Origin: Escherichia coli
GTDB taxonomy: Bacteria; Pseudomonadota; Gammaproteobacteria; Enterobacterales; Enterobacteriaceae
Reading direction: 5' to 3' (one strand)
Assembly (NCBI RefSeq): GCF_044324875.1
Contig: NZ_CP172185.1
Length of the DNA stretch: 64,000 nucleotides
Position 1 is the first letter of the stretch. Every line of letters starts with the position of its first letter. This document shows positions 11,079 through 58,538 of this stretch, in pieces. A program made the position numbers and the translations under genes. The notes beneath the pieces were generated by a model. That model was not told the DNA's origin. It saw nothing but the letters and a program-made list of their open reading frames with translations, and searched no databases.

Positions 11079-11087
11079 GGGGATGGC

Positions 11088-12281: not shown

Positions 12282-12457
12282 ATGGGGGCCCCTTAAACTG
12301 ACCGAACACAATGAGCCCCCAAATGTGCCCCCATTTAATGCTTGATTCAGGGGGTGTTCAATAGAATTCGGTGGAGTTCAAAATGTCCGGAACGATTATA
12401 AATCAGTGATTATACATGAATTTCGTGGAGTGCGGGGGATGTGTGTAGAAGTGAAGG

Positions 12458-39781: not shown

Positions 39782-40425
39782 GTCGTTTTCGTCATGCCCT
39801 GCAGGATCGTGACCAGCATATTTTGACGCTTCGTGTGTTCAGTGGTGTGCTGGCGGGGCTGCTTCTGATGGTCACCCTCGGCTGGATGTCTGCACCTGAC
39901 CGGCTGACCATCCATAATCCACCTGATTTACGTTCCGGCAGTACCCGTCCGTGGTGGGAGGTTCCGCCTTCCACTGTCTATTCCTTTGCGTATTACATTT
40001 TCCAGCAACTGAATGCCTGGCCGAAAAACGGTGAGGTGGATTATCCGGCAAAAATTCATGCCCTGTCGGCCTATCTGACACCGTCGTGCCGGGAAATCCT
40101 TGAAACGGATGCACGACGCCGTAAGGACGCGGGGGAACTGCTGGATCGTGTTCGTGTGGTGTATGAGATCCCTGAGCACGGTTACGGCGGACGTTACAAC
40201 CGTAATCCGGTCACGGTGGAAGGCCGGGACAACTGGCAGGTTCGTCTCGACTTAGTGGTGGATGAGTATTTTCATGCTGAGCCGGTCAAACGGGCGCTGG
40301 TCCGCTATCCGATGAAGGTGGTGCGTATGGAGGGCGATCCGGAACTTAATCCGTTTGCTCTGGCGCTGGACTGTTACAGCTCCACGCCGCAGCGTCTGGA
40401 AGCCGTGAAGGGAGGTGGTGAATGA
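39778..40425 (+). CDS. PFL_4704-family-like ICE protein
   Basis: Coupled start. N-terminal TM helix. Confidence 0.55.
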   Translation: MSRFRHALQDRDQHILTLRVFSGVLAGLLLMVTLGWMSAPDRLTIHNPPDLRSGSTRPWWEVPPSTVYSFAYYIFQQLNAWPKNGEVDYPAKIHALSAYLTPSCREILETDARRRKDAGELLDRVRVVYEIPEHGYGGRYNRNPVTVEGRDNWQVRLDLVVDEYFHAEPVKRALVRYPMKVVRMEGDPELNPFALALDCYSSTPQRLEAVKGGGE

Positions 40426-41342
40426 GAACCTGTGTACTGCGCAACCTGCTGCGTCCTGCCGCTGTGATGTTGTCGCTGTCAGTGATGTCCCTGACGGCGC
40501 AGGCAGATGAACTGATGAAGTGGGAGCGTATTCCGCTGGATGTCCCGCTGATGGTGGGGCAGGAGCGGGTCATTTTTGCCGATAAAAACGTGAGGGTGGG
40601 CTTTCCGCCTGCACTGAACGGCAGGCTGCGGGTGCAGAGCACCGGCGGTGCCGTCTACCTGAAAGCGGACAGCGCCTTTCCGAAAACGCGGGTTCAGCTG
40701 CAGGATGTGGAAAGCGGGGAGATGATCCTGCTGGATGTGACGGCCGCAGAAAAGGGGCCCACTGAGCCTGTCCGGATTGTGTATGACGGGGAGGTGAACA
40801 CGGTGAGCCGTGCCGGCGGCAGCGCTCCGGAGAGCGCGAAGGCGGGCAGCAGTGACGGACGTCCCGGGAAAGTCGGTGCGGATGACGGCACGCAGGCCCG
40901 CCGGACCGCCCCCCGTTATGACGAGCCCTTGCCGGTTCTGCTGACCCGGTATGCGGCACAGTCCCTGTATGCTCCGCTGCGCACCCTTGAACCGGTTGCG
41001 GGGATCAGACCGGTGGTGCCACCTCTTCCCCGGCAAATCACCACGCTTTACCCGTCTGAACCCCTGACGGTATCCCCGGTGGCGGCATGGTCCGCCGGCG
41101 GACGAACCGTGGTGGCCCTGAAACTCACCAGTACGGTGAGCCGGCGTATTGTGCTTGATCCGCGAGCCCTGCAGGGCCGTTTTGTGGCGGCCACCTTCCA
41201 GCACCGCTGGCTGGGTGCTGCCGGGACACCGGAAGACACCACAATGCTGTATGTGGTGACGGCAGGCCGCCCGGAGAAGGCCTTTGTGGCAGAGCCTGTG
41301 GCACCGCGCAGGACGGGCGGGGAGGTGAAACATGCAGATTAA
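40422..41342 (+). CDS. PFL_4705-family-like periplasmic ICE protein
   Basis: Signal peptide ...LTAQADE. Coupled start. Confidence 0.55.
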   Translation: MRTCVLRNLLRPAAVMLSLSVMSLTAQADELMKWERIPLDVPLMVGQERVIFADKNVRVGFPPALNGRLRVQSTGGAVYLKADSAFPKTRVQLQDVESGEMILLDVTAAEKGPTEPVRIVYDGEVNTVSRAGGSAPESAKAGSSDGRPGKVGADDGTQARRTAPRYDEPLPVLLTRYAAQSLYAPLRTLEPVAGIRPVVPPLPRQITTLYPSEPLTVSPVAAWSAGGRTVVALKLTSTVSRRIVLDPRALQGRFVAATFQHRWLGAAGTPEDTTMLYVVTAGRPEKAFVAEPVAPRRTGGEVKHAD

Positions 41343-42810
41343 GTCCAATACCCTGGTGAAATTTGTGGTACCTGCTGTGGTACTGGCGGGGCTGGTGATC
41401 ACGATGAAAAGCTGCAGCACACCGGAGAGCGGGAGTGAGAGTACAGCACAGAGCGGTGCGCTGGCCGGATTATCGTCAGAAGAGCTGCGTGCGCTGGGCG
41501 TGGAAGGGGACACGCCGGAGGATACCCTGCGGACCCTGGTTGCCCGCCTGAACCAGGTCAGGGATAACCAGAAAACGCTGGAGAGCCAGAATGCGCAGTT
41601 GCTGAAGGACAACGAACAACTGCGTCGCCGGGGGACGGATGTGTCCGGCCAGGTCAGTGAAGCCGTGGCGGGAATGCAGAAAACCTACGATCAGAAGCAG
41701 CGTGAACTGCAGGAGCAGCAGCGCTCCCTGATGTCGCAGATTGATGTGCTGCGGGGGCAACTGAGTGACCAGCTGACGGGAAGTCACACGAAGCTCAGCG
41801 ATATTCCTGACGGGCTGGGACTGGATTCAGGCAGTGGTTCCGGGTCGTTGATCTCGCAGGGGGCGGACGGGCTGATGTGGGTGAGTCCGGCCGATCAGTC
41901 ACAGGATGATCCGCTGAGCAGCGGCGGAAAGAGCGGTCCGCGTTTTCCGACCTCCTTCCTTGAAGATAACCCCCTGACCCGGCAGAAAGCAGCCTATGAG
42001 CAGCAGGTGAAGGGGTACAGCAATGAGCAGCAGGCGGCCACCACGCAGGCCGTGTACACCCTGCCGGAGAACTCAACCCTGACGGGCAGCCGTGCCATGA
42101 CGGCCCTGCTGGGCAGGGTGCCGGTAAACGGCACGGTGACCGATCCGTATCCGTTCAAGATCCTCGTGGGGCGCGATAACCTCACGGCAAACGGCATTGA
42201 ACTGCCGGATGTGGAGGGGGCTGTGGTGTCAGGGACGGCCAGCGGTGACTGGACGCTTTCCTGTGTGCGCGGACAGGTGAACAGCATCACCTTTGTGTTT
42301 GCTGACGGCACGGTACGCACGCTGCCACAGGCGGATGTGAACGGTACCACCAACAGCAATCAGCAGGCGAAAAACGGGAATAACGCAGGCGGGATTGGCT
42401 GGATTTCGGATGAGGATGGGATCCCGTGTATCAGCGGCACCCGTAAATCCAATGCGTCAACCTACCTGCCGACGATATTCGGGCTGGCCGCAGCCGGCGC
42501 GGCAGGGGATGCCCTGAGTGAGGGGCAGTACACCTCGCAGAACAATGTCAACGGTATAACCTCGACGCTGACCGGCAGTGCCGGTGAAGCGGCGCTGGGT
42601 AAGGCCCTTTCCGGCGGGATGAATGAGACCGCGGACTGGGTAAGACAGCGTTACGGGCAGACCTTTGATGCCATTTATGTGCCGCCGGGAAAAACGCTGG
42701 CCGTTCACATTACCCGTCAGCTGGCGATTGATTATGAAGAGCGTGGACGTCGTGTGCGTTATGACTTCACCCTGCCGGGAGAAGCGGGCGACCGGGGCGG
42801 CCTTGACTGA
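41332..42810 (+). CDS. ICE T4SS protein (TM helix, coiled coil, beta-rich C-terminus)
   Basis: N-terminal TM helix, coiled coil at about residues 60-140. Conserved position upstream of the lipoprotein and ATPase. Confidence 0.55.
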   Translation: MQIKSNTLVKFVVPAVVLAGLVITMKSCSTPESGSESTAQSGALAGLSSEELRALGVEGDTPEDTLRTLVARLNQVRDNQKTLESQNAQLLKDNEQLRRRGTDVSGQVSEAVAGMQKTYDQKQRELQEQQRSLMSQIDVLRGQLSDQLTGSHTKLSDIPDGLGLDSGSGSGSLISQGADGLMWVSPADQSQDDPLSSGGKSGPRFPTSFLEDNPLTRQKAAYEQQVKGYSNEQQAATTQAVYTLPENSTLTGSRAMTALLGRVPVNGTVTDPYPFKILVGRDNLTANGIELPDVEGAVVSGTASGDWTLSCVRGQVNSITFVFADGTVRTLPQADVNGTTNSNQQAKNGNNAGGIGWISDEDGIPCISGTRKSNASTYLPTIFGLAAAGAAGDALSEGQYTSQNNVNGITSTLTGSAGEAALGKALSGGMNETADWVRQRYGQTFDAIYVPPGKTLAVHITRQLAIDYEERGRRVRYDFTLPGEAGDRGGLD

Positions 42811-42827
42811 ACAGGGAGAATGAGTCC

Positions 42828-43232
42828 GTGAAACGATTACTGTTCGTGATGAGTGTGGCACTGGTGCTGTCGGGCTGTGCCACCTCTAAAGAAGAGCTGC
42901 TGCCTGCCGGAGAGCAGACGATGCTGGAGCTCTGGCAGGGTAAAACCGCAGGTGGCGGTCAGCGGCATGCGCTGGCCGCCCGGGAAACGTTGCGCCGTCC
43001 CCTTACGGTAACGGAGCAGCAGGGGATGAACGCGGAGGCGTACAGCTACAGCCGGACGCAGGAAAGCGAAATCAGCCAGCAGTTTCCGCGTCTGCCGAAT
43101 CCCGACATGGTGATGTATGTGTTTCCGCATCTGGCCGGCGGTACGTCGCCGGTTCCGGGCTACAGCACGGTATTTCCTTTTTACAGCAGGACGCAGTATG
43201 CGCTGCCAGGTGAGCGTACGGAGGCTCTGTAA
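42828..43232 (+). CDS. Conjugative-transfer-region lipoprotein
   Basis: Lipobox VLSGC. GTG start. Confidence 0.6.
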   Translation: MKRLLFVMSVALVLSGCATSKEELLPAGEQTMLELWQGKTAGGGQRHALAARETLRRPLTVTEQQGMNAEAYSYSRTQESEISQQFPRLPNPDMVMYVFPHLAGGTSPVPGYSTVFPFYSRTQYALPGERTEAL

Positions 43233-46081
43233 TGACATTCTCGCTTTTCAGACGCCGTGAGGAAAAAGGTACAGCAGAGACCAGGGAACGACCGGAAGCA
43301 GAAGCGGGGGCATCTTCATCGGCCTTTGTTCCGCCCTGTCCTCCGGGGGCACAGCCCCTGCGACGTCCGGGACAGATGACCCGTGATGCTGAGGCGGCGG
43401 TTTATCATGCCGGTCCGTCGGTTATTGATTTTCTGCCATGGGTGGAATATCTGGATGAGGAGCAGTGTCTGCTGCTTGACGACGGGGTGTCGGTGGGAGC
43501 GGTCTATTCGGTGACGCCGGCCGCAACGGAAGGGCGTACGGAAGAGCGCCTGGCGCAAATCAGGGACATGGTGGAGGATGCCCTGCAGGACAGTTTTGAT
43601 GAGTACGACACGCATCCCTGGGTGGTGCAGTTCTACTGTCAGGATGAAAATGATGTGGATGCGTACCTGGACTATCTGAAGGGGTATGTGAAACCCCACG
43701 CGCAGGGAACGGCATTCACGGAGGCCTGGCTGGGTGAAATGGCCCGCCATCTCAGGGGGATTGCCCGTCCTGAGGGACTGTTTACGGACACCCTGGTCAC
43801 CGGTCAGCCCTGGCGGGGACAGCAGCGACGAACCCGGATGGTGGTTTACCGTCGTATCGGGAAGAACAATAACGATCCGATGTCGCCGGTGGCGATGCTG
43901 AACCAGGTCTGCGACCGCGTGGTGTCCGCACTGGGTGGAGCCGGTATCCGCTGTACCCGGATGAACGGTCAGCAGGTGCACAGCTGGCTGCTGCGGTTAT
44001 TTAATCCGGCACCGGACTGGATTGCCCGTGAAGAGCTGTACCGGATGGCCTCACGGGTTGATCCGCGTGAGCGTGGTGATGATGTGATGCCGGTGATGAC
44101 GGATTTTGCCGAGAGCCTGTGGTTTAACCCGCCGTATTCCGATCCGGAGAACGGGGTGTGGTGGCTGGACGCCATGCCGCACTGTGCCGTGGTGGTGGAA
44201 AAGCTGCGTACGCCGCCGGAGCCGGGGACCATCACCGGAGAGATGCCCCGTGGGGAAAAAACGGTGAATGCGCTGATGGACACCTTTCCGGAGGGAACGG
44301 TGATGTGCATGACCATCGTGGTGCAGCCCCAGGACACCCTGGAGGACCGTTTCACCCGGCTGTCGAAAAATGCGGTGGGTGAGAACACGGAATCCATCCG
44401 GGCGCGTCAGGACGTGAAGGTGGTGAAGGAGCTGCTGGGGAACCGGCACAAGCTGTACCGGGCAGGGCTCACCTTTCTTCTGCGGGCAGAGGATATGGAC
44501 AGCCTGAAACGCCGGCGTGTGGAGCTGACCACGGTGCTTCTGGGGGCTGGTCTGCAGCCGGTGCGGCCTGAGTTTGACGTGGGGCCGCTGAACAGCTGGC
44601 TGCGGGCGCTGCCGATGTGTTTTGATCCGGATACGGACAAAAAGCAGTGGTACACGCGTCTGATGTGGGTACAGCACATGGCAGGATTGTTGCCGGTGAC
44701 CGGCCGGGATACGGGGACCGGACATCCGGGGTTCAGTTTTTTTAACCGGGGTGGTGATGTGCTGACTTTCGATCCGCTGAACAAGCTGGACCGTACCCAG
44801 AACGCGCATCTGCTGCTGTTCGGACCAACGGGGGCCGGTAAATCGGCCACGCTGTGTGCTTCACTGTCGCAGGTGATGGCAGTACACCGTCCCCGCCTGT
44901 TCATTGCCGAAGCGGGGAACTCGTTTGGTCTGCTGGCCGATTATTTTGAGAGTCTCGGGCTGTCGGTGAACAAAATCAGCGTCAGACCGGGAACCGGTGT
45001 GACCCTGCCGCCGTTTGCAGATGCGCATAAACTGGTTGAGGAAGGGCAGGATCTGCAGTGCGTGGATGAGCACTCACTGCCTGATATTGAGGATGAAGCC
45101 GGGGATGAAGGGGAGGATAAACGAGACATTCTGGGCGAGATGGAAATCTCAGCCAGGATGATGATCACCGGGGGGGACCCGAAAGAAGAGGCCGCGCTGA
45201 AGCGTGCGGACAGGGCGATGATCCGCGAGGCGCTGCTGATGGCCACACACCGGACATACCGTGAGGGGCGGCAGATGCTGCCGGAGGATTTGCAGTCCGC
45301 CCTGTGGGAGATCTCCCGTGACAGCAGCCGTAACGATGTGCGCAATGCAAAGGCGGCGGAGATGGCGGAGTCTCTGGGGATGTTCACCCAGAAGGGGAGT
45401 TTTGAGGCGGAGTTGTTCAACCGTGAGGGCGAACTGTGGCCGGAAGCGGATGTGACGCTGATTGACCTGGGGCATCTGGCCCGTGAGGGGTATGAGGCAC
45501 AGATGGCGCTGACCATGGTGTCGATGACCAACATGATCAATAACATTGCCGAACGTGATCAGTATCTGGGGCGTGACATCGTGTTTGCGGTGGATGAGGC
45601 GCATATCGTGACGGTCAATCCGCTGCTTTCGCCGTACATGACGAAGGTTGTGAAGATGTGGCGTAAGCTGGGAGCGTGGCTGTGGCTGGCGACACAGAAC
45701 CTGAAGGATTATCCGGATGTGTCGGAGAAGATGCTGAATATGGCGGAATGGTGGGTGTGTCTGACGATGCCACCGGAGGAAGTGAACAACATTGCACGCT
45801 TTAAATCACTGACGGAAGAGCAGAAAGCGGTGCTGATGTCGGCGAGTAAGCTGTCCGGCTGTTATACCGAAGGCGTGGTGCTGGCGAAACAGATTGAGGC
45901 GCTGTTTCGTGCGGTGCCGCCAAGTCTCTATCTGGCGCTGGGCATGACGGAGAAAGAAGAGAAGGCTGAGCGGCGCATGCTGATGAAGGAACATAACTGC
46001 AGCGAACTGGAGGCGGCGTTCCATGTGGCGCGTAAGCTGGACAGGCTGCGTGGTCTGTCGGCCATGGAGGCGGATGTATGA
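43232..46081 (+). CDS. Conjugative transfer ATPase (VirB4/TraC-like, PFL_4706 class)
   Basis: 949 aa. Walker A GPTGAGKSAT. Walker B IVFAVDEAH. Confidence 0.88.
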   Translation: MTFSLFRRREEKGTAETRERPEAEAGASSSAFVPPCPPGAQPLRRPGQMTRDAEAAVYHAGPSVIDFLPWVEYLDEEQCLLLDDGVSVGAVYSVTPAATEGRTEERLAQIRDMVEDALQDSFDEYDTHPWVVQFYCQDENDVDAYLDYLKGYVKPHAQGTAFTEAWLGEMARHLRGIARPEGLFTDTLVTGQPWRGQQRRTRMVVYRRIGKNNNDPMSPVAMLNQVCDRVVSALGGAGIRCTRMNGQQVHSWLLRLFNPAPDWIAREELYRMASRVDPRERGDDVMPVMTDFAESLWFNPPYSDPENGVWWLDAMPHCAVVVEKLRTPPEPGTITGEMPRGEKTVNALMDTFPEGTVMCMTIVVQPQDTLEDRFTRLSKNAVGENTESIRARQDVKVVKELLGNRHKLYRAGLTFLLRAEDMDSLKRRRVELTTVLLGAGLQPVRPEFDVGPLNSWLRALPMCFDPDTDKKQWYTRLMWVQHMAGLLPVTGRDTGTGHPGFSFFNRGGDVLTFDPLNKLDRTQNAHLLLFGPTGAGKSATLCASLSQVMAVHRPRLFIAEAGNSFGLLADYFESLGLSVNKISVRPGTGVTLPPFADAHKLVEEGQDLQCVDEHSLPDIEDEAGDEGEDKRDILGEMEISARMMITGGDPKEEAALKRADRAMIREALLMATHRTYREGRQMLPEDLQSALWEISRDSSRNDVRNAKAAEMAESLGMFTQKGSFEAELFNREGELWPEADVTLIDLGHLAREGYEAQMALTMVSMTNMINNIAERDQYLGRDIVFAVDEAHIVTVNPLLSPYMTKVVKMWRKLGAWLWLATQNLKDYPDVSEKMLNMAEWWVCLTMPPEEVNNIARFKSLTEEQKAVLMSASKLSGCYTEGVVLAKQIEALFRAVPPSLYLALGMTEKEEKAERRMLMKEHNCSELEAAFHVARKLDRLRGLSAMEADV

Positions 46082-46464
46082 TGTGTCTGAAATACCCGAA
46101 ACCGGAGGTGATGACAGAGGTCATGCCCGGGGGCAGCGTGTTTTTTCTGCCGCCGCAGGGAAAACCGGGTGTTGCGGATCTGGCGCAACCGCATCTGCAG
46201 CGCCTGCGGTCACAGCTTGAACGCAGGCTGGGTACGCTGCATCGTGTGGTGTGTCAGCCCCAGCGGGTGGGGCAGAGCAGCAGTGTGGCCGTGACAGCAG
46301 AAGGGGCGTGTGGCGAGGTGCATCTTCTGCTGACAGTAGGGGGGCATGAGAGCTGGCCCTCTGAAGAGGAATACCGGCATCCGCGCTGGTATATCCAGGT
46401 GGTGGATGCGGCCGATCTGTTCTACCTGCTGCTCTGGCTGTGTGATGGCGGGCAGGAAGCGTGA
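46078..46464 (+). CDS. Hypothetical ICE protein whose 3' end is duplicated at 48806-48871
   Basis: ATGA coupling to the ATPase gene. C-terminus ...VVDAADLFYLLLWLCDGGQEA. Confidence 0.55.
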   Translation: MMCLKYPKPEVMTEVMPGGSVFFLPPQGKPGVADLAQPHLQRLRSQLERRLGTLHRVVCQPQRVGQSSSVAVTAEGACGEVHLLLTVGGHESWPSEEEYRHPRWYIQVVDAADLFYLLLWLCDGGQEA

Positions 46465-46491
46465 AGTAAAAATACTTCCACTGGCAAACTG
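46399..46491 (+). repeat. Direct repeat A (3' end of the 46078-46464 gene plus 27 bp)
   Basis: Aligns with 48806-48895. The coding part is near-identical; identity falls after the stop codon. Confidence 0.85.
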
Positions 46492-46504
46492 CTCCAGTGG
46501 AAGT
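46474..46504 (+). terminator. 11-bp stem-loop after the 46078-46464 gene
   Basis: ACTTCCACTGG-caaactgct-CCAGTGGAAGT, followed by T-rich sequence. Confidence 0.5.
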
Positions 46505-46552
46505 GTATGTAATGTTTTGTTGTTTATTTTAATTTCTTGTAAAACACAAACA

Positions 46553-46571
46553 CTAATTATTCTCATTATTG
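46553..46571 (+). promoter_or_regulatory. Candidate Fur box upstream of the TonB-dependent receptor
   Basis: CTAATTATTCTCATTATTG resembles GATAATGATAATCATTATC, with the best match in the TCATTAT half. Lies 50-70 bp upstream of ATG 46620. Confidence 0.4.
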
Positions 46572-46619
46572 TTTAGATTTGTGTATCTTTCGCCCGATTA
46601 ATATAATCGGAGAGAAGAT

Positions 46620-48707
46620 ATGCGAATAACCACTCTGGCTTCAGTAGCCATCCCTTGTCTCGGATTTTCAGTCAGCAGCATGGCTGCGGAAGATGTGATG
46701 ATAGTCACCGCATCCGGCTATGAAAAAAAATTAACCAGTGCAGCTGCGAGTGTTTCGGTGATCAGTCAGGAGGACTTGCGATCCAGCCAGTATCATGATC
46801 TTGGGGAGGCACTGAGATCCGTAGAGGGGGTGGATGTTGAAAGCGGTACGGGTAAAACCGGTGGACTGGAAATCAGCATCCGTGGAATGCCTGCCAGTTA
46901 TACGCTGATACTGATTGATGGTGTCCGTCAGGGCGGGAGCAGAGACGTAACCCCGAACGGTTTTTCTGCCATGAACACGGGGTTTATGCCACCTCTGGCC
47001 GCCATCGAACGTATTGAGATTATCAGGGGCCCCATGTCCACTCTGTACGGCTCTGATGCCATGGGGGGCGTGGTGAATATCATCACCAAAAAGAATGCAG
47101 ACAAATGGCATTCTTCAGTTAATGCCGGGCTGAACCTGCAGGAAAGTAACAAATGGGGGAACAGCAGCCAGTTTAATTTCTGGAGCAGCGGCCCCCTGGT
47201 GGATAATTCTCTCAGCCTGCAGGTACGTGGCAGCACGCAGCAGCGACAGGGCTCATCGGTCACATCACTGAGCGGCACCTCAGCCACGCGCATCCCTTAT
47301 CCAACAGAGTCACAGAATTATAATGCAGGTGCTCGTCTTGACTGGAAAGCAACGGACAAGGATATGTTCTGGCTTGATATGGATACTGCACGACAGCGTT
47401 ATGATAACCGGGACGGCCAGCTGGGCAGCCTTACTGGCGGTTATGATCGTACCCTGCGCTATGAACGTAATAAAATTTCGGCAGGTTATGATCATGCATT
47501 CACCTTCGGAACCTGGAAGTCATCCCTGAACTGGAATGAGACGGAAAATAAAGGCCGTCAGCTTGTACGCAGCGTACTGAAGCGTGATAAATGGGGACTT
47601 GCCGGCCAGCCGAGGGAGCTTAAGGAGTCGAATTTTATCCTGAATTCCTTACTGCTTGCACCTGTGGGTGAATCTCACCTGGTTACTGTCGGTGGTGAGT
47701 ACCAGAACTCATCCATGAAAGACGGGGTTGTTCTCACCAGTACAGGCGAAACCTTCCGGCAGAAAAGCTGGTCGGCATTTGTTGAGGATGAGTGGCATAT
47801 CACGGATGCGGTTGCACTGACTGTGGGCAGTCGTTATGAACATCATGAGGTGTTCGGAGGACACCTCAGTCCGCGGGCATATATGGTCTGGGATGTGGCT
47901 GATGAGTGGACGCTGAAAGGTGGGGTGACCACGGGATATAAGGCACCCGGCATGGGGCAGTTACATAAGGGGATCAGCGGTGTGTCCGGTCAGGGGCGTA
48001 CGAATCTTCTCGGTAACCCGGACCTGAAGCCGGAGGAGAGTGTCAGCTATGAAGCGGGCGTGTATTACGATAATCATGCCGGTCTGAACGCCAATATCAC
48101 GGGCTTTATGACAGAGTTCTCCAACAAGATCGTATCTTATTCTATTGATGATAATACCCGCAGCTATACAAACAGCGGAAAGGCCAGGACTCAGGGTGTG
48201 GAGTTTGCCGGCACACTGCCTCTGTGGTCAGAGGATGTGACGCTGTCTCTGAATTATACCTGGACGCAGAGTGAACAACGGGATGGGGATAATAAAGGTG
48301 CACCACTGAGTTACACCCCTGAGCATATGGTGAATGCGAAACTGAACTGGCAGATTACTGAAGATGTGTCATCATGGCTGGGTGCCCGTTACCGCGGGAA
48401 AACGCCACGTTTCACCCAGAATTATTCGTCACTCTCAGCTGTACAGAAGAAAGTGTATGATGAGAAAGGTGAATATCTGAAAGCCTGGACGGTACTGGAT
48501 GCGGGCATGTCGTGGAAAGTGACGGATGCACTGACGCTGAATGCAGCGGTGAATAATGTGCTTAACAAGGATTACAGTGACGTAAGTCTGTATCGTGCCG
48601 GCAGTGGTACGCTTTATGCGGGTGATTACTTCCAGACGGGGGCATCGACAACAGGTTATGTGATACCGGAGAGAAATTACTGGATGTCGCTGAGCTATCA
48701 GTTCTGA
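46620..48707 (+). CDS. TonB-dependent catecholate-type siderophore receptor (CirA/IrgA/IreA-like)
   Basis: Signal peptide, TonB box DVMIVTA, plug motifs RGPMSTLYGSDAMGGVVNIITKK, C-terminal ...YWMSLSYQF. Collinear with the CirA I remember. Confidence 0.85.
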   Translation: MRITTLASVAIPCLGFSVSSMAAEDVMIVTASGYEKKLTSAAASVSVISQEDLRSSQYHDLGEALRSVEGVDVESGTGKTGGLEISIRGMPASYTLILIDGVRQGGSRDVTPNGFSAMNTGFMPPLAAIERIEIIRGPMSTLYGSDAMGGVVNIITKKNADKWHSSVNAGLNLQESNKWGNSSQFNFWSSGPLVDNSLSLQVRGSTQQRQGSSVTSLSGTSATRIPYPTESQNYNAGARLDWKATDKDMFWLDMDTARQRYDNRDGQLGSLTGGYDRTLRYERNKISAGYDHAFTFGTWKSSLNWNETENKGRQLVRSVLKRDKWGLAGQPRELKESNFILNSLLLAPVGESHLVTVGGEYQNSSMKDGVVLTSTGETFRQKSWSAFVEDEWHITDAVALTVGSRYEHHEVFGGHLSPRAYMVWDVADEWTLKGGVTTGYKAPGMGQLHKGISGVSGQGRTNLLGNPDLKPEESVSYEAGVYYDNHAGLNANITGFMTEFSNKIVSYSIDDNTRSYTNSGKARTQGVEFAGTLPLWSEDVTLSLNYTWTQSEQRDGDNKGAPLSYTPEHMVNAKLNWQITEDVSSWLGARYRGKTPRFTQNYSSLSAVQKKVYDEKGEYLKAWTVLDAGMSWKVTDALTLNAAVNNVLNKDYSDVSLYRAGSGTLYAGDYFQTGASTTGYVIPERNYWMSLSYQF

Positions 48708-48805
48708 TAACAACAAAACCGATATAACGCACAGTAAAATGTAAACATGCTGCTGCTGTCACTGCAGGCAGTGGCAGCAGCGTATAACCGCAGATGTTTG
48801 TCCAT

Positions 48806-48895
48806 GTGGTGGATGCGGTCGATCTGTTCTGTCTGCTGCTCTGGCTGTGTGATGGCGGGCAGGAAGCCTGAAAAAACTGCCGCTACTGGCAACTG
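48806..48895 (+). repeat. Direct repeat B (displaced 3' gene fragment encoding VVDAVDLFCLLLWLCDGGQEA*)
   Basis: Aligns with 46399-46491. Confidence 0.85.
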
Positions 48896-49244
48896 TGTCG
48901 TGGTGGCATGTTACTGGCAGGTGGTTTACGGAGTATGGGCCCAATTCTGGCCTGCCGGAACATGCCCTTATAACCTTTAACACAGCGGTTACATAAAAAA
49001 CAATGTCTTTTGTGCACAGCAGTATTGTGGCTGAAAGTGAAATAAAAGCGCGATATTATACTGCTTCGCGTCCGGTTGTCATTATCATGGATAGTGCGTT
49101 ATGTTTATAAAGGCGTGACGGACGCTTAATTCTCACGCAACGCACCCCTCTTAAATTTTCAGTTTCCGGTTTTGAATTTATTGCTGCTATTGGTGCTGCT
49201 TATGCGCACGCTGTAAGTCGGATATTGTCTGACGGAGGCGTACA

Positions 49245-49640
49245 ATGTACCGGATTTTCTGTTCCCTGTTTTTCCTGCCGCTGGCAGCGTCTGCCGGCAC
49301 AACAATTTATACCGATTCTCAGCACCTCCCCGTTAATCCTCCCGATGGTGTCAGGGTGGTTCTGCTGGATGCACCGGAGCAGCTTCAGACCCGCTTTTTT
49401 GGCACGTTGCCTGCTGATGCGGATAAGGCTGAAGCGGTGGTCAGGGCACGTATGCAGTCTCCCGAATGGCAGATGATGCAGGCGGAACTGGCTGCTCATT
49501 ACCGCGATGTGGCACATGCCTGGTCGCTGGGCGTGAAGAAATATCCTGCCGTGGTGTTTGATGACAGTGAGGTGGTTTACGGCATCACGGATGTGGTGGT
49601 GGCCGGGAAACTCCGTACTGAGGGAGGAGTTCAGCCATGA
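49245..49640 (+). CDS. PFL_4709-family-like periplasmic ICE protein
   Basis: Signal peptide ...LAASAGT. Immediately upstream of the TraU-like gene. Confidence 0.55.
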   Translation: MYRIFCSLFFLPLAASAGTTIYTDSQHLPVNPPDGVRVVLLDAPEQLQTRFFGTLPADADKAEAVVRARMQSPEWQMMQAELAAHYRDVAHAWSLGVKKYPAVVFDDSEVVYGITDVVVAGKLRTEGGVQP

Positions 49641-50611
49641 TGACCCTGAAAAGTCGTCTGCGTGCCTGCGTACTGTTACTGAGTGTGGCATCACTGCCTC
49701 TGGCGTCTGCGTCACTGAATACTGCCAGCATTATCGCCAGTGCGGCGGCACCGGACTGTATCAGCTGGCGTGTCAGCGGGATTTGTTACTGGCTTTACTG
49801 CAGCGCGTCTGGCTGTACGGTCAGAACTTCCGTGAAGGTGACACATTTCATCCCGGAAGTGGTTATTTCCACCTATACGGCACCGGGTGGTAATCCCTGG
49901 AAAGAGATGTCGCTGGTCAGCCGGACCGCAGGTGGCCCGGAGAATGCCATCACTGACGGCCTGTCCGGGCTGAGTGCCGGCGGGGGAAATCCGGCGGATA
50001 TGAAAATACAGGGGAAGCGCCGTTCAGCCATTCGTTTCAAATACGCAGATGCGCTGGGTCATCCGGCCACACAGCTTATCGGCGGGATGGTACCCGGATT
50101 CAGCTGTGATTCACCGGTGACACCGGCCATGCCCTATTTCCTCAGTACCCTGGACAGCATCGTCTGGCGAACGGGATTACCTGAATCCCTGTATCCAGAG
50201 GCACAGGTTCCCGGCAAACGCGAGATTGGCACCCAGGCCGATAAAAACATGTGGGGGAGCGTTTATCCCCGGAGTGGTTTTGTGATGCAGACCGATGATG
50301 ACCGGGCAGCGGCGGTGGTGGCCCAGCGGGTGGCCGACATTATCACGCGGACGGGGGAGCCGCATGTCTACAGGGAGGTTAAGGGCGTGAAACGTGACGG
50401 CTACTGGCCCCCGGAGGCGGTGGAGGAAAACACCGGCACCCGAAATCACAAATGGCAGCGACTGACGCCGTCAGTGTCGCGTTCCTGTGCCGTTTTCCCG
50501 GATGGTGAACATCAGGCAGCGGAGAACGGTAATGCCGCCTTTTCACTGTGGCAGCCCTATAGCTGCTGTAAAAAGCGCGGGCAGCGATTTCTTGGCAGTA
50601 CGAATTTTTAA
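49637..50611 (+). CDS. TraU-like ICE protein (PFL_4710 class)
   Basis: Signal peptide. Cys-rich CISWRVSGICYWLYCSASGC. Confidence 0.65.
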   Translation: MMTLKSRLRACVLLLSVASLPLASASLNTASIIASAAAPDCISWRVSGICYWLYCSASGCTVRTSVKVTHFIPEVVISTYTAPGGNPWKEMSLVSRTAGGPENAITDGLSGLSAGGGNPADMKIQGKRRSAIRFKYADALGHPATQLIGGMVPGFSCDSPVTPAMPYFLSTLDSIVWRTGLPESLYPEAQVPGKREIGTQADKNMWGSVYPRSGFVMQTDDDRAAAVVAQRVADIITRTGEPHVYREVKGVKRDGYWPPEAVEENTGTRNHKWQRLTPSVSRSCAVFPDGEHQAAENGNAAFSLWQPYSCCKKRGQRFLGSTNF

Positions 50612-50617
50612 GGAACC

Positions 50618-52039
50618 ATGATGATGAAGATGAAAACAGGTGTGGTGGCACTGAGTGTGATGCTGTGCTGCAGTACTCCGGTGATGGCTGATCTTCTTTC
50701 TCTGCCGAAACTGAATGACAGCACGTTCGGTTACGGGAAATCCGTTGATGGCGCCGTATCCGACAAACTGTTCTATACGCTGGGTGGCGGCTCGGTGATC
50801 TCACAGCCGGCCACGCGCAGCAACATGCAGAAGCTGGGTATGGACCTGGGCTGGAGCAGCGATCTGATGTGCGGCAACTTTGACCTGAAGACCACGGTGG
50901 GTAATCAGCTTAACGGCGTGACTGAAGGCTTTAAAAATCTGATGGGGGATGTGATTCAGGGGGCGACCGGCGCCGTTGCCAGTCTGCCGGCGATGGTGAT
51001 ACAGCGTGCCAATCCAGGCCTGTACGACATGATCACCAACGGTGTGCTGCAGGCGAATGTGGCTTTCGACAAGGCGCAACTGAACTGCCAGAACATGGCA
51101 AAACGGATGATGGACTTTTCTGATCGCAGCAAATGGACGCAGGCTGCGATGCTGGAAGAGTACAAGAAGGTGGTGAACAGCGGTGACGGTGATGCGGTGA
51201 AAGGGGATGAGGCCGGGCGTCAGGCCACCGGGAAGGAGGGTAAGAAATGGATTGGCGGACAGCAGCGCGGCGGGGCAGGTCAGCCCGCCATCCGGCCGGT
51301 GCATGATCTGACAGCGGCCGGGTTTAACATGATGAACAGTCTGCCCGTGACCAGTAGGGCCAGCGTCAGTGCCGGTAACTGTAACGGCAGCGCCTGTGAG
51401 ATGTTCCGGAATGCAGAAGAGGCCGCTAAGGCGGTGGTAAAGGTGCTGGGTGATCGTACCATGCGCACCTGTACGGATGCGAAGGCCTGTACCAGCGGGG
51501 ATAATGAACAGCAACAGGGAACCGTTGCAGGAACGGGGTTTGCGCCGGTGCTGGAAGAGGCGACTAGGGTGAACACGGAACAATTGGTCCGTCTGGTGAA
51601 TGGTCAGGAAAAACCCACTGCAGAGAATCTGGCAAAACTGAAAACCGGCAGTCTGGCTGTATCTGCAGGGGTGATCCATGCCCTGCGTCGTGACCCGGAC
51701 AATATGTCCCTGACGTCACGGCTGGCGGGAGAACTGGCGATGGCGCATACCGTGGAAACGGCTCTGGTGATGCGCAGAATGCTGCTCACCGGGATGTCTG
51801 AGCCGTACGCGGCCGCAGAAGATGCCGCGATTCAGGAAGGCGACCGGCGTATCGCTGCACTGGACAGGGAAATCATGGCGCTGAAGAACGAGATGGAGCT
51901 GAAACGCGATCTGGCACGTAACAGCGTGCTGACCATCATTGAACGCGACAATGAGCGCGTGGGCAGCAACCCGATGATCCAGCCTGCAGACAATACTGAC
52001 AGTCGTGTCCGGGCACTGGACATTCCGGACGGGGAGTAA
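50618..52039 (+). CDS. PFL_4711-family-like periplasmic ICE protein
   Basis: Signal peptide ...TPVMADL. 473 aa. Confidence 0.55.
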   Translation: MMMKMKTGVVALSVMLCCSTPVMADLLSLPKLNDSTFGYGKSVDGAVSDKLFYTLGGGSVISQPATRSNMQKLGMDLGWSSDLMCGNFDLKTTVGNQLNGVTEGFKNLMGDVIQGATGAVASLPAMVIQRANPGLYDMITNGVLQANVAFDKAQLNCQNMAKRMMDFSDRSKWTQAAMLEEYKKVVNSGDGDAVKGDEAGRQATGKEGKKWIGGQQRGGAGQPAIRPVHDLTAAGFNMMNSLPVTSRASVSAGNCNGSACEMFRNAEEAAKAVVKVLGDRTMRTCTDAKACTSGDNEQQQGTVAGTGFAPVLEEATRVNTEQLVRLVNGQEKPTAENLAKLKTGSLAVSAGVIHALRRDPDNMSLTSRLAGELAMAHTVETALVMRRMLLTGMSEPYAAAEDAAIQEGDRRIAALDREIMALKNEMELKRDLARNSVLTIIERDNERVGSNPMIQPADNTDSRVRALDIPDGE

Positions 52040-52043
52040 GCGT

Positions 52044-52403
52044 ATGGCGATGACTCAGGGGACAAAAGCGGGGCTGGTTCTGAAGGGCGTTAAGGTGGCC
52101 GGCATGTGGCTGTCGGGCCTTATTGCCATGATGATTCTGGCCCTCCTGGTGGCTGATACGGGCATGCGGAATACGCAGGAAGTGGAAGCATTACGGCTCT
52201 GGCTCCACGAGACACGTTTCGGATGGCTGGGGTGGCGGGTGTGCCTCTACGGTGCGCTGGCATGGGGATGCCGGAAAACCTGGCGTGCGCCGGGGTTCAG
52301 ACCGGAATACCGCCGTCCCTTTGCGCGGATTTGTCTGGTCAGTGCCCTGTTTGCGTTACTTTGCGAGTACAGCATTTTTTTCGGACCGGGGGTTGAACTG
52401 TGA
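52044..52403 (+). CDS. ICE membrane protein
   Basis: GGGGAG upstream of ATG 52044. Three TM helices. Confidence 0.5.
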   Translation: MAMTQGTKAGLVLKGVKVAGMWLSGLIAMMILALLVADTGMRNTQEVEALRLWLHETRFGWLGWRVCLYGALAWGCRKTWRAPGFRPEYRRPFARICLVSALFALLCEYSIFFGPGVEL

Positions 52404-53923
52404 CCACGAATAACTATCTGGAACACTTTCTGACCCTGCTGGGCTGGCTGGTGAATAATGGCCTGTGGGATCTGCTGACGGGGACGGGGCTGTTTGCCCT
52501 GCCACTGGCCTTCAGGGTTATCGGGATCTGGCTGAAAGTGCGGGAAGAGGGGGCGGATGAGGGAAATAAAGGGATGCTCTCACTGCCCCGCATTGAGCAT
52601 GCCCTGTATGGTGCATTTTTTGTGATGGTGGCCTGTTGTGTGCCGCTGGTACAGGTGACGCTGGACACGCTGAAATTTGATCGCAGCCGTGCCCAGACCT
52701 GCGGTGTGTGGACACCGAAAGCACCCGGTGATACCGGGTACAGCGGGGTGATCAGCAGCCTGGGTGACAGGACAGCGGCCGCCCCGGTGTGGTGGGTGGT
52801 GGTGCATAAACTCTCCAAAGGTGTGACGCAGGCTGCTGTGGCTTCCATTCCCTGCCGGCCGGATATACGGCAACTGCGTTTTGAGGTGCAGCGGACATTC
52901 ATTGCGAACCGGGCGCTGGCCGACGAGCTGCAGGATTTCACCAACGACTGTTACTCGCTGGCGCTATATCAGTGGAAGCAGCGTGACCAGGGGATGACGA
53001 AGGACAGGAAGCTGCTTTCGGATATCAGCTGGATTGGCAGCAGTACGTTCATGCAGGGTGACTACGGAACACTGCAGTCGAAAATGCCACGTGCGGCATT
53101 CCCGTGGAATAGCGCCCGTGACAGCGGCCGTCCGGATACGGGACGGGGTGGTTATCCCACATGCCGTGAATGGTGGAGTGACAGTAGTGTCGGGCTGAAG
53201 AAGCGGGTGACAGGGGAAGTCGATGAAGGACTGTGGTTGCGTATTTCGGCGGCAATGAAAATGCTGGGGAACGCGCAGGCGAACTACCAGGAGGAAATCA
53301 TCAAACGTCTGGTGAGTCCGGCGAACCTGACCCTGTCACAGGGTGGTGAGGTGTACCGCGGCTATGGCGGTAATGCAGATATGACGGCGGCGAATGCGGT
53401 CACGCGTGCAGCAGGCACGGCGGGGTCTGCCGTTGCGAGTCTGGCAGCGTTTCCGGCGTTTGATGCGATGCGGCAGGCGCTGCCGATGGTGCAGAGTATT
53501 CTGCTGATGGCGGTGTATATCATGCTTCCGTTGATTCTGGCGTTTGCGGCGTATGAATTCAGCACGCTGATCACACTGACGTTTGTGGTGTTTGCGCTGA
53601 ACTTCCTGACGTTCTGGTGGGAGCTGGCGCGGTGGCTTGACAGCTGGATGCTGACGGCCTTGTACAGTTCGGACACGCATTCCCGAGTGAACATGATGGG
53701 GCTGCAGAACACGTCGGATGATATCATCATGAATTTTGTGATGGGCACGATGTTTATTATATTGCCAGCGGTGTGGCTTGGGGCTTTATCCTGGGCGGGT
53801 ATTAGCGCAGGTGTTGCTATTGCTAATGCAGCCAGAGATGGAACAAGTGCAGCACATCAAGCAGCTTCAAAGGCAGGAGATCTTGTTGGGAAAGTAGGAA
53901 ATTCTTTAGGTAAAAATCAATAA
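52400..53923 (+). CDS. TraG N-terminal-domain conjugal transfer membrane protein
   Basis: GTGA coupling. Polytopic. 507 aa. Last gene of the high-GC T4SS block. Confidence 0.7.
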   Translation: MTTNNYLEHFLTLLGWLVNNGLWDLLTGTGLFALPLAFRVIGIWLKVREEGADEGNKGMLSLPRIEHALYGAFFVMVACCVPLVQVTLDTLKFDRSRAQTCGVWTPKAPGDTGYSGVISSLGDRTAAAPVWWVVVHKLSKGVTQAAVASIPCRPDIRQLRFEVQRTFIANRALADELQDFTNDCYSLALYQWKQRDQGMTKDRKLLSDISWIGSSTFMQGDYGTLQSKMPRAAFPWNSARDSGRPDTGRGGYPTCREWWSDSSVGLKKRVTGEVDEGLWLRISAAMKMLGNAQANYQEEIIKRLVSPANLTLSQGGEVYRGYGGNADMTAANAVTRAAGTAGSAVASLAAFPAFDAMRQALPMVQSILLMAVYIMLPLILAFAAYEFSTLITLTFVVFALNFLTFWWELARWLDSWMLTALYSSDTHSRVNMMGLQNTSDDIIMNFVMGTMFIILPAVWLGALSWAGISAGVAIANAARDGTSAAHQAASKAGDLVGKVGNSLGKNQ

Positions 53924-55270: not shown

Positions 55271-55534
55271 ATGAAACCGAATATCCATCCTGAATACCGT
55301 ACTGTGGTGTTCCACGATACCAGTATCGATGAGTACTATAAAATTGGTTCGACCATCAAGACTGAACGTGTGATTGAGCTTGATGGTGTCACCTATCCGT
55401 ACGTAACTATTGACGTTTCCTCTAAGTCGCATCCTTTCTACACCGGCAAACTGAGAACTGTTGCTTCAGAAGGTAACGTGGCGCGCTTTAACCAGCGTTT
55501 CGGGCGTTTTGTTGACACCAAAAAAGGTGCCTGA
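55271..55534 (+). CDS. ykgM: Ribosomal protein L31 type B (zinc-independent paralogue)
   Basis: [31 protein letters not shown]...[28 protein letters not shown] lacks the CxxC zinc motif. Near-identical to the E. coli YkgM I remember. Confidence 0.9.
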
Positions 55535-55640: not shown

Positions 55641-56813
55641 TTATTTATTTCCTTTTGAACGATTATGCGTAACGCAAAGCATTTCGCAATTATCAGGCTT
55701 ACTTTCACCCCCCTTACTCCATGCGGAAACATGGTCGGCTTCCATTTCTTTCAAAGCCCAGATTTTTGTTTTATTGGCATTATCTGAACTGGCGCAAAGG
55801 GGGCAGTTTGAAATACCTTGTTGCTCCGCTTTATCTGTTTGCCTTTTGTAGGCTTGTTTTTTAATTTTTTCATCAAAAAAGCGAATGTTTAATAAACGTT
55901 TATCAGATTGACCACCTAACACATATTCCCAGATGCCTTTAATGTTTTTTACACTATCATCCTGATATAATTTATTGATTTGCGTGGCTAATTCACCTGG
56001 ATTGTATGGTTTGTCTTTATAGGTTTCGTATAAACGCCCCCATTCCAGTCCGCACATTTCTTTTTTTACCTCGGTAAATGTGGTGTTAACCCAGTCAATC
56101 ACGCTATTGAAATAGGTTTTTAATTCCTTGATATTGTCATCATTACGATGGGCATTCATGTATTCGCTGATATTTCCTTTACTGACCCAGTTTAACGCAC
56201 ATTCTAAAATTTCCTGGCGTTTAACATTACCTTTGATGTAAGCACTCCATTTTTGCACATTTGAATTAGCAGAATTACTGAATTCTGCTTTTGCCAGTGT
56301 AACAAATTTGCCCGAATACACCGCATTCAATAATTCTTGTTCATTTAAAGGGACGCCAGTAATATTAATCGTTTTAAACCATTCTTTAATTTCGCTTTCT
56401 GTACCCTTACATTTGTAAATCAGCAAAGTGGTTTGTTTGATTTTCTCTTGTTGGTCTTGCGGTAAACTATGGAAATAGTATGGCGTGCCTTTATCATCTA
56501 TAATGGCGAATTTTCCGGTAACAAACCGCCCAATACTGGTAATGCGCTGCTGACCATCCAGTACTTCAAATGTATCTTCTGTATCTTTGTCAGGTTGATT
56601 AAAATAAATCAAACCGAGCGGATAACCTTTTAATACTGACTGGATAACTGCCACATCTTTCTTACCGTCTGCATAAATATAATTGCGTTGATATTCGGGC
56701 TGAATGGTAAGCTTTCCTGATAAACCAAACAAGCCTTTTCCCTCCAGTTCATTATAAACAAATCCATCGCACAATTGTTCAACGGTGATTGATGTATCTA
56801 ATTGTGTTTTCAT
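55641..56813 (-). CDS. DUF262 (ParB-like nuclease N-terminus, DGQQR) protein with a C-terminal HNH nuclease
   Basis: [14 protein letters not shown]-terminal CPLC...[11 protein letters not shown]...N...[12 protein letters not shown]. Confidence 0.8.
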
Positions 56814-56828
56814 TTTTCACTTTTCCTT

Positions 56829-57983
56829 TTATTTATTTTGTGGATTGATGTGTTTAATAAGAATGCGTCCATAAGTACGTTTGCCGTTAATAACTGTACA
56901 CCCACCCCTATCTTCAGAATGTTGAGAATAATTTAAAATCTCCAGTATCTCTTCGGGAGTTGATGCTCGTGTATTACCACTTGCTTGCCAAATAATTTCA
57001 AACTGTTCAGGACAATATTTATCCAAAAAGCTAATTGGCACGCCCATAACTCCTGCATAATCGCTAGGAATACCGTTAGTTCTGGGCACTTCAATAGCAT
57101 CATAATTGTCATATGCCTGATAAGCGTTAGGGTCATTGATAATTTGTTTGTTGTATTTTAAATTATCCGCCATAGACATTAGCTGTAAAGATTGATGCCG
57201 TCTGCCGTGTTCAATATTGGTAAACCAACAAGAGTTACCCAAACGAGTATAATCACCTATATATCCTAGACGCTCCGCTTTTTTCTTATCAGCTTCCCTC
57301 ACATCAGCACCTTGTGGTACAGCAAAAACCATATCATTACCATTCCCAGTAGCACCCAACCAAATTTTATTTCCTTTGATAAGTGGAAAAATCTCTTTAT
57401 AAGTAATAGCATTCATATTACCGATAACGGCAAACTGCTTTTTACCTTCCATAATCCATGCCATAAATTCGCGAAACAGCGAAAAAGGCGGATTGGTGAT
57501 AATTATGTCGCTTTCATCGCGTAGAGCTTTGATTTCATCACTACGAAAATCGCCATCACCCTGCAGGTATTGCCATTTAATATCTTTAAAATCAATTACA
57601 CCATCGTGATTACTGTCTTCGGTTAGCGTGTAAATTTTGCCATGTTTCTGGCTTTTATCACTGTCGTATTGTTCACTTTCGCTTTCAAATAATGATGGCT
57701 GATAAGCTGTGTTTAACTGTTTGGATTGATGAGCGTAGCTGGTACTGATGAGCTTCTTTAATCCAAGTCGTTCAAAGTTTTGTGCAAAATAAAGTGTGAA
57801 ATTGCTCCACTCGGGGTCATCACATGGTAAGAGAATGGTTTTGCCACGAAATACGTCTTTATTGAAATCAAGATAGGCATTCATCTCTTTTTCAATATCA
57901 TGGTATTGGGTGTAAAATTCGTCATTTTTGGCTTTTTTTGCAGCAGAAAGATTACTGTTTTTGGCAGAAATATTCTTTGACAT
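56829..57983 (-). CDS. N6-adenine DNA methyltransferase, EcoRI-methylase-like family
   Basis: NDEFYTQ N-terminus, ILLPCDD, catalytic IIITNPPFSLF. GGAGG RBS. Confidence 0.75.
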   Translation of the reverse strand: MSKNISAKNSNLSAAKKAKNDEFYTQYHDIEKEMNAYLDFNKDVFRGKTILLPCDDPEWSNFTLYFAQNFERLGLKKLISTSYAHQSKQLNTAYQPSLFESESEQYDSDKSQKHGKIYTLTEDSNHDGVIDFKDIKWQYLQGDGDFRSDEIKALRDESDIIITNPPFSLFREFMAWIMEGKKQFAVIGNMNAITYKEIFPLIKGNKIWLGATGNGNDMVFAVPQGADVREADKKKAERLGYIGDYTRLGNSCWFTNIEHGRRHQSLQLMSMADNLKYNKQIINDPNAYQAYDNYDAIEVPRTNGIPSDYAGVMGVPISFLDKYCPEQFEIIWQASGNTRASTPEEILEILNYSQHSEDRGGCTVINGKRTYGRILIKHINPQNK

Positions 57984-58152: not shown

Positions 58153-58211
58153 ATTAGCATTGGATTTTCCCTTTTACTTGTCAAGTATTTTCTTTTGGAT
58201 TCTGAAGTTTT

Positions 58212-58538
58212 TCACGTATTCGTAACGATGGCATCAAGTGCAGCGATAATTTCATTTCTGGATGAAGAAATATTACATATAAAATCTTTGCTGTTTATTT
58301 TTTTTGCATCCAGGAACGTGAGCGCCGGGGTGAACACATAGAAATCCGATGTCTCTATTTTAACTAATGGCGTTATCCTTTTCTTTTTAAGCTCAATATC
58401 ATTTTTTGATACCAGAGGCACGACTATCCTTGTGGTTAAATCGTCAAAATAATCATTCTGGAGAATAAGGTAGAACGGCCAGAGTTTATTCGTTCTGACC
58501 GATGGATTGCGGTATACATCAAATTGCTTTGGCATCAC
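58212..58538 (-). CDS. ccdB: CcdB-family toxin
   Basis: FDVYRN...PFYLILQNDYFDDLTTRIVVPL resembles the CcdB N-terminal pattern. The start overlaps the antitoxin stop. Confidence 0.6.
   Translation of the reverse strand: MMPKQFDVYRNPSVRTNKLWPFYLILQNDYFDDLTTRIVVPLVSKNDIELKKKRITPLVKIETSDFYVFTPALTFLDAKKINSKDFICNISSSRNEIIAALDAIVTNT

Follow-up and report, generated by a model that had tools for sequence, protein, structure and literature searches.

A divergent iha receptor gene flanked by chimeric repeats in the transfer region of an Escherichia coli integrative and conjugative element

We analysed a 64-kb window of an Escherichia coli genome (contig NZ_CP172185.1), the whole stretch of DNA to which the coordinates below refer, and focused on a receptor gene that lies among the conjugation genes of an ICE (integrative and conjugative element). 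Its gene content marks the element as an ICEEc2/PAPI-1/SPI-7-type ICE of E. coli, and the receptor gene is iha. As listed in Table 1, iha sits between the 128-codon gene orf128, which follows a TraC/VirB4-like ATPase gene, and the TIGR03757 and TraU-like genes, and the 2407-bp insert that carries it is flanked by two direct copies of the orf128 3' end. The original prediction for this DNA had placed a receptor cassette between the VirB4-like ATPase and the TraU-like genes, inside the operon of a type IV secretion system (T4SS). Annotation and domain matches support the location, and the insert does lie between two transfer-gene blocks, though not demonstrably within one transcription unit. The lower GC content predicted for the segment between the copies is real: 0.50 at 46466-48800, against 0.61 at 40422-46464 and 0.575 at 49245-53923, that is, 0.58-0.61 in the flanking transfer genes.

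Table 1. Positions of the iha insert, its flanking repeats and the adjoining transfer genes in the 64-kb window.
Feature	Position	Strand	Basis or remark
TraC/VirB4-like conjugative transfer ATPase (PGAP start ~43376)	43232..46081	+	Pfam TraC_F_IV E=1.7e-91
orf128, intact 128-aa ICE gene; its 3' end is the duplicated sequence	46078..46464	+	
Repeat copy A	46394..46491	+	alignments and difference positions relative to the empty site
Copy A, native (empty-site type) part	46394-46425		
35-bp core shared without differences by A, B and the empty site	46426-46460 = 48833-48867		
Copy A, foreign-type part	46461-46491		last synonymous base, stop codon, ~27 nt
Hairpin with 13-bp stem, then T-rich tract (to ~46530), intrinsic-terminator-like	46473..46506	+	inverted repeat
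Fur-box-like site in the AT-rich iha upstream region	46552..46570	.	14/19 to Fur consensus
iha, divergent allele (product 695 aa); Iha is a bifunctional adhesin and catecholate siderophore receptor	46620..48707	+	RefSeq name at 100% identity
GC-rich hairpin, ~14 bp, directly 3' of iha	48749..48782	+	fold -28 kcal/mol, z=-3.25
Repeat copy B, non-functional remnant of an orf128-type 3' end	48801..48895	+	
Copy B, foreign-type part	48801-48832		4 differences from the empty site: 48805, 48819, 48831, 48832
Copy B, core, then native sequence	48833-48867, native from 48868 on		
Intergenic region of the native ICE, upstream of the TIGR03757 gene; runs on from copy B just as it does in empty elements	48896..49244	+	
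TIGR03757 (DUF1525) and TIGR03756 (TraU-like), first genes of the downstream T4SS block	49245..50611	+	

The receptor gene is an intact open reading frame (ORF), and its product has the architecture of a TonB-dependent receptor, with a Plug domain (Pfam, E=2e-27), a 22-strand barrel domain (TonB_dep_Rec_b-barrel, E=7e-65) and a C-terminal Phe (...SYQF). It scores 1539 bits with the NCBIfam equivalog model for Iha (NF010012/PRK13486; cutoff 924) over model positions 1-696 of 696, and in E. coli chromosomes that match the region at 100% identity the annotation pipeline PGAP calls the receptor Iha. The earlier description of the gene as CirA/IreA-like needs correction. IreA was rejected at 408 bits with NF010011 (cutoff 1197) and CirA at 336 bits with NF007478 (cutoff 745), and DNA similarity of the receptor gene to ireA and cirA is confined to ~90-110 nt.

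Compared to Iha of E. coli O157:H7, the protein is 91% identical over its full length, while nucleotide identity to the classical iha allele is ~85%. Because the published iha subtypes LAA, pO113 and EDL933 are at least 91% similar to each other (PMC6920203), the window allele is more divergent than these. The ratio of nonsynonymous to synonymous divergence (dN/dS) between window iha and classical O157 iha is 0.075, with dS at 0.65, which indicates a functional, old lineage under strong purifying selection. Taken with the 91% identity, the dN/dS value suggests that the product would serve both catecholate siderophore uptake and adherence. Among 5426 complete E. coli genomes, only ~23-29 have the allele, and poultry is the source of many of these; no plasmid carries it, the best plasmid match being 85%. 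Outside E. coli the closest homologue is 74% identical and lies in an ordinary chromosomal context in Citrobacter, and a scan of GTDB species representatives with the Iha protein gave nothing close.

A repeat search of the window returned the duplication around the insert as an ungapped direct repeat of 77 nt (46389-46465 and 48796-48872, 91% identity, spacing 2407). Gapped alignment extended it to 94 nt (46394-46491 and 48801-48895, 87.2% identity with 2 gap positions; E=1.4e-27 with the whole window as target), and there is no third copy in the 64 kb. Both results confirm that the 3' end of the upstream gene is repeated around the insert, as originally predicted, and the duplicated stretch is only ~95 bp rather than part of a longer duplication. 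Copy A holds the last codons of orf128, its stop and ~27 nt beyond; its translation ends in ...WYIQVVDAADLFYLLLWLCDGGQEA (also given as ...VVDAADLFYLLLWLCDGGQEA) before the stop. Copy B translates as MFVHVVDAVDLFCLLLWLCDGGQEA followed by a stop, exactly the peptide that had been predicted for it.

The original prediction had also proposed looking for an uninterrupted junction in related ICEs. Joining 45400-46467 to 48873-50100 as an empty-site query, we found that junction as one 2294-bp piece, at 97.4-98.8% identity, in 14 E. coli chromosomes among complete genomes. In these empty elements the space between orf128 and the TIGR03757 gene is a 373-bp non-coding gap, and occupied and empty elements share one orf128 protein accession (WP_000968513.1). 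The insert lies in an intergenic gap and, as predicted, disrupts no ORF. Strain TUM1886 (NZ_CP128970.1) has two ICEs of this family (937665-941065 and 5045947-5048240; loci L001 and L003), one with iha in the gap and the other, which is among the 14 matches, with the gap empty, with flanks 98.7% identical. This pair is a natural setting for recombination between ICEs. In other relatives the gap differs: in one group it is 265 bp and empty, and in another it is ~1.7 kb and holds a DUF1187 gene. Given these differing contents, the gap is a variable slot.

Comparison with the empty site showed that the two copies are hybrids of opposite polarity. Copy A follows the empty site through 46460 and then reads GCG TGA AGTAAAAATACTTCCACTGGCAAACTG where the empty site reads GCC TGA AAAAACTGCCGCTACTGGCAACTG. 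Copy B differs from the empty site at four positions, all to the left of the core, and is identical to it from 48833; only 2 further differences occur in the next ~400 nt (across 48841-49244). Four differences in 40 nt are unexpected against the 1% local background (P=7e-4). The outer flanks are purely of empty-site type, with no differences at 46076-46460 or at 48833-49011, which places the exchange point of each side inside the core, in line with the prediction of a single reciprocal crossover. In copy A the foreign tail (46461-46491) aligns with the native post-stop sequence at 17 of 24 positions, which fits an origin beside a diverged orf128 allele. In occupied elements the only change to orf128 is synonymous and falls in its last sense codon.

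The same four variants of copy B are present in every occupied element that we examined, including the diverged TUM9803 and L011, and all 12 of the empty elements listed give the same 96.0% match over 48801-48900, which corresponds to the four differences. It follows that the differences predate the spread of the occupied element. In TUM9803 (L009 5868-6020) copy B has lost 17 bp, gained 4 bp and acquired several substitutions, with the left copy and orf128 intact, direct evidence that copy B is a decaying remnant, free of selection.

These data bear on the possibility that the insertion was one-sided, the left end having recombined in the orf128 end and the right end having joined illegitimately ~65 nt upstream of the left recombination point, so that local sequence was duplicated and the differences in copy B arose by later drift. 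Copy B is free to decay, as in TUM9803, and its left edge near 48800 does look illegitimate. Even so, drift would have to place four differences within 32 nt against two in the adjacent 400 nt of non-coding DNA (P=7e-4), and the differences are common to all occupied elements examined, so a very short stem branch would be required. We regard such a one-sided event as improbable.

The anatomy of the repeats indicates instead that they are reciprocal chimeras of the empty site and not a target-site duplication. We rejected transposition, target-site duplication and integron readings on the anatomy of the unit. An insertion by a transposon, an insertion sequence (IS) or a site-specific system of integron or integrase type, with the repeats as target-site duplication or attachment sites, is disfavoured to the point of being scarcely credible. 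Direct repeats do flank the insert, and elsewhere in the ICE there are genes for an "integrase domain-containing protein" and an Rpn-family nuclease. But the repeats are ~95 bp long, non-identical (87-91%) and chimeric; no transposase gene, recombinase gene, terminal inverted repeats or short identical target duplication was found in the unit 46461-48832; and two other iha insertions in the same gap, described below, have different junctions and no repeats.

A direct duplication that flanks an insert, with the two copies as reciprocal hybrids relative to the empty site, is what was found here and what Campbell-type integration produces. Suicide plasmids and looped-out tandem units integrate in this way, and recombination between the copies reverses the event precisely. 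The window differs from the typical case in that the event would be a natural one, with a very short homology arm (35 bp identical, ~95 bp homeologous). In work of 1986 attributed to Shen and Huang, the minimal efficient processing segment for RecA-dependent recombination in E. coli is reportedly ~23-27 bp, which the 35-bp core exceeds.

We consider it probable, though well short of certain, that the iha unit, in circular or tandem form, entered the ICE gap through one homologous crossover. The ancestral element would have had the 373-bp gap after orf128, with which the TraC-ATPase block ends, and before the TIGR03757/TraU block. The incoming 2407-bp unit would have consisted of a diverged orf128 3' end, a hairpin, the Fur-box promoter region, iha and the 3' hairpin, and so would have brought a ~95-bp homeologous copy (H') of the orf128 end. 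This DNA would have been circular, or one unit looped out of a tandem array, and the host's homologous recombination would have integrated it in Campbell fashion through one reciprocal crossover within the 35 bp of perfect identity at 46426-46460. The homology would thereby be duplicated, the left copy becoming native then foreign and the right copy foreign then native. A circle or a tandem duplication would be expected to contain just such a join as the illegitimate-looking junction near 48800 between copy B and the 3' flank of iha. On this model the donor stretch is predicted to read TTCTGTCTGCTGCTCTGGCTGTGTGATGGCGGGCAGGAAGCGTGAAGTA, and a full-length orf128 allele of the donor type would end in VVDAVDLFCLLLWLCDGGQEA. 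Once integrated, the iha cargo would travel with the ICE, whose transfer genes are presumably still functional.

Two crossovers could have given the same chimeric product without a circle, had the donor been an ICE that already carried the arrangement of orf128', iha and remnant, with one exchange in each copy. Family ICEs do reside together in one cell, as the two in TUM1886 illustrate. On the other side, both exchanges would have to fall in the same 35-bp core despite kilobases of 80-99% homology between ICEs; our searches turned up no donor of this kind, and how the duplication arose would be left unexplained. We judge this replacement unlikely.

Several observations weigh against the single crossover that we favour. 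The main weakness is the donor, which we did not find in complete E. coli genomes, plasmids, metagenome contigs or the protein collection, although it may exist outside these collections. The predicted donor (foreign left, core and foreign right), searched as an exact 49-mer, had 0 matches in metagenome contigs; a 45-mer of the foreign tail matched just one such contig, which is of window type at 99.9%; and no orf128 homologue among 25 proteins ends in ...VDAVDLFC.... The foreign part of copy B is based on 4 substitutions in 32 nt, and its leftmost bases (~48796-48803) may belong to the 3' flank of iha rather than to orf128. The hairpin region after copy A is weakly similar to the iha upstream region of the 93% lineage described below, so "orf128 tail" and "iha cassette" are not sharply delimited from each other. 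A donor that already had the duplication would yield the same product by two crossovers. Finally, a crossover between the cores of A and B would restore the empty site exactly, so the empty elements are formally inseparable from revertants. Separately, an orf128 variant ending in ...VDAVDLFY... (P0007) was considered as donor or as a sign of gene conversion; the locus that encodes it (L011) is one of the ordinary occupied elements and shows an independent GCAGTA change, which makes the variant uninformative.

The gap holds iha in other ICEs as well. The ICE of strain SCU-171 (L002), whose backbone is ~80-83% identical, carries an iha of classical type (94% to O157) in the same gap between orf128 and the TIGR03757 gene. 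The insertion begins ~165 bp after the orf128 stop and replaces at most 7 bp, and no flanking repeat was found around it; duplication is therefore not a general property of iha insertion. The window element differs from the SCU-171 ICE in its junction and in its 95-bp chimeric duplication. In the SCU-171 element a gene for an S6 peptidase lies downstream of iha. ICEEc8 of Shiga toxin-producing E. coli (STEC) that lack the locus of enterocyte effacement resembles the window element: it, too, is an ICE of E. coli with iha among its cargo, and it has genes for conjugation and type IV pili; O117:H7 strains have its iha and O91:H14 strains lack it (Montero et al. 2019, PMC6455142). The SCU-171 element fits ICEEc8 as described there, a likeness by description and not by sequence.

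A third iha lineage (93-95%; L008 and L020) lies in decayed ICE remnants, and its right backbone junction coincides with that of SCU-171. Members of this lineage have an extra 780 bp between iha and the backbone, with an ORF of 83-97 aa (L020 5880-6659; L008 from 8276), into which an IS3-family element is inserted in some strains, and the left half of the ICE is replaced by IS630 and IS remnants. Classical iha loci also bear a trace of the gap. In E. coli O157:H7 strain 1130 a 97-bp stretch upstream of iha (L007 5787-5883) is 73% identical (E=6e-14) to the gap of an ICE (L005 1635-1730), and its end coincides exactly with the SCU-171 insertion point. At least 1367 complete E. coli genomes keep the upstream flank in which this relic lies. 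In contrast to classical iha in decayed islands, the window allele sits in an intact ICE.

These loci raise the question of whether iha was ancestral in the gap, with the empty elements derived by homologous deletion between copies A and B, the polarity of the event reversed and the arrangement of A and B dating from an earlier time. A core crossover would restore exactly the empty sequence that we observe; the divergence of the iha alleles (85.6% nucleotide identity between the window and the SCU-171 ICE) is close to that of the backbones (83.4% and 79.8%); at least three ICE lineages have iha in the same gap; and classical iha retains the gap relic. Against this, two ICE lineages ~17% apart (L003 and L005) both have uninterrupted, mutually homologous gaps, and the SCU-171-type insertion has no flanking repeat for a precise deletion, so at least those empty elements are ancestral. 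The occupied group of window type is also tight, with 22 of 23 elements at 99.6% identity or above, while the empty elements are more diverse (97.4-98.8%). Moreover, recombination between two homeologous orf128 ends would still be needed for the arrangement of A and B. We therefore find an ancestral iha doubtful and retain capture by a single crossover as the preferred account of the window.

It is tempting to speculate further that iha is a long-term resident of the orf128-TIGR03757 gap, shuttling between ICE lineages, and that classical iha loci are fossils of decayed ICEs. iha would then be a small, recombination-driven unit with a portable homology arm, the orf128 end, which would loop out as a circle and re-enter a related ICE without a dedicated recombinase, and the iha loci of O157:H7, STEC and uropathogenic E. 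coli (UPEC) islands would descend from the ICE gap. We put this forward tentatively, as a minority view of the same data.

The insert appears to bring its own expression signals. A Fur-box-like site had been predicted at 46553-46571, and we find it one base to the left; its sequence, ACTAATTATTCTCATTATT, agrees with the Fur consensus GATAATGATAATCATTATC at 14 of 19 positions and lies 50-68 nt upstream of the iha ATG. Only two sites in the window reach 14/19 when both strands are considered, so that this one is tied best. Its core, ATTCTCATTAT, is invariant in four iha lineages, classical iha promoters included, and is shared, along with the Plug and barrel architecture, with Iha of E. coli O157:H7 and UPEC. 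Expression of iha from its own promoter under repression by Fur and iron is probable; for classical iha, control by Fur has reportedly been published.

Upstream, the hairpin and T-rich tail at 46473-46530 separate orf128 from the AT-rich iha upstream region; the RNA fold of the hairpin (46473-46506) is -20.3 kcal/mol (z=-3.3), and 0 of 200 shuffles were equally stable. The hairpin after iha may also act as a terminator. Its U tract is weak, so read-through from iha into the downstream transfer genes could still occur. The 3' flank of iha is common to the 93% iha lineage as far as ~48779-48800. Sigma-70-like promoter matches lie in the native intergenic region at 48977-49004, 49031-49059 and 49076-49105, and an Rfam scan of the window gave no match in the insert region.

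The assignment of the host element comes from the RefSeq annotation of a 99.8%-identical element and our own profile scans. In common with the ICEEc2/PAPI-1/pKLC102/SPI-7 family it has the TIGR037xx transfer set (the TIGR03744 ATPase and TIGR03745-03759 proteins), TraD, a TraC-like ATPase, a TraU-like protein and TraG_N. By annotation it further shares with the ICEEc2 family ParA, an SPI-7-type DnaB helicase, ParB and the STY4528/STY4534 replication proteins. The ATPase next to the insert scores 1401 bits with TIGR03744 (cutoff 521), and the genes downstream match Pfam DUF1525 and TraU (TIGR03757, 126 bits), in agreement with RefSeq. No Pfam or NCBIfam match was obtained for orf128. Of the 25 homologues found, all those with a named source come from E. 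coli, and several entries bear the label "acetyltransferase", a name that no Pfam or NCBIfam model backs. The window contains no tRNA, and the right end of the element lies beyond it; of integrases, the annotation shows only the "integrase domain-containing protein" within the window. ICEEc2 itself was described from an avian E. coli strain, as cited in PMC6761156.

From 12457 on, the window is 99.2-99.9% identical to the ICE of TUM1886. Positions 1-12456 are absent from that ICE and resemble an island with leoA/leoB/leoC dynamin-like genes and a tyrosine recombinase; their best match (98.3%) is strain CM2 from chicken. A kps capsule cluster takes this place beside the same ICE in TUM1886. Given these different left neighbours, the element sits in different neighbourhoods in different strains.

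The element holds further features of note. Four matches to the STAXI RNA motif (61-85 bits; gathering score 40.5) lie on the + strand in ICE intergenic regions (26927-27233, 60945-61117 and 63740-63911) and explain a ~250-bp repeat that is present three times in the element at 94-98% identity; one EFASI motif (72 bits) is likewise intergenic, at 61642-61764 (+). In the replication/partition region, near the STY4528-family replication gene, a tandem array at 23487-23803 consists of 8.8 copies of the 36-bp unit ATGGTGCCACTGGCACCATAGTACAAAAAATGAGCG (92% matches) with a palindrome in each unit, an appearance that resembles iterons or an origin.

Among the annotated cargo is a paralogue of ribosomal protein L31 of type B (zinc-independent, YkgM-like) at ~55271-55534 (+), a second metal-limitation gene on the element beside the iron receptor. 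The cargo further includes an adenine methyltransferase of the EcoRI family next to an HNH endonuclease, the toxin-antitoxin pair CcdA/CcdB and a recombination-promoting nuclease of the Rpn family (~55641-57983 (-), 58191-58762 (-) and ~28742-29734 (+)); these coordinates are approximate, having been transferred from the annotation of the 99.8%-identical TUM1886 element.

That iha is variable ICE cargo and that ICEEc2-family elements exist was already known. What is new here is the divergent allele, a junction anatomy that points to homology-driven capture, and an ICE relic beside classical iha; as an instance of cargo capture, the case is tidy yet fairly ordinary. For surveys of pathogenic strains, PCR typing built for the three published iha subtypes may miss the divergent allele. 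For the ICE family, the locus shows how a virulence or fitness gene can be slotted amid a conjugation cluster without damage, by way of a long intergenic gap. Entry would need just ~35 bp of identity with the end of a neighbouring gene and neither transposase nor integrase, and such an insertion would in principle be precisely reversible and passable between related ICEs. The relic, whose upstream flank is kept in at least 1367 complete genomes, connects the iha loci that are common in pathogenic E. coli with this ICE family, and it adds weight to the idea that certain modules of pathogenicity islands are what is left of conjugative elements.

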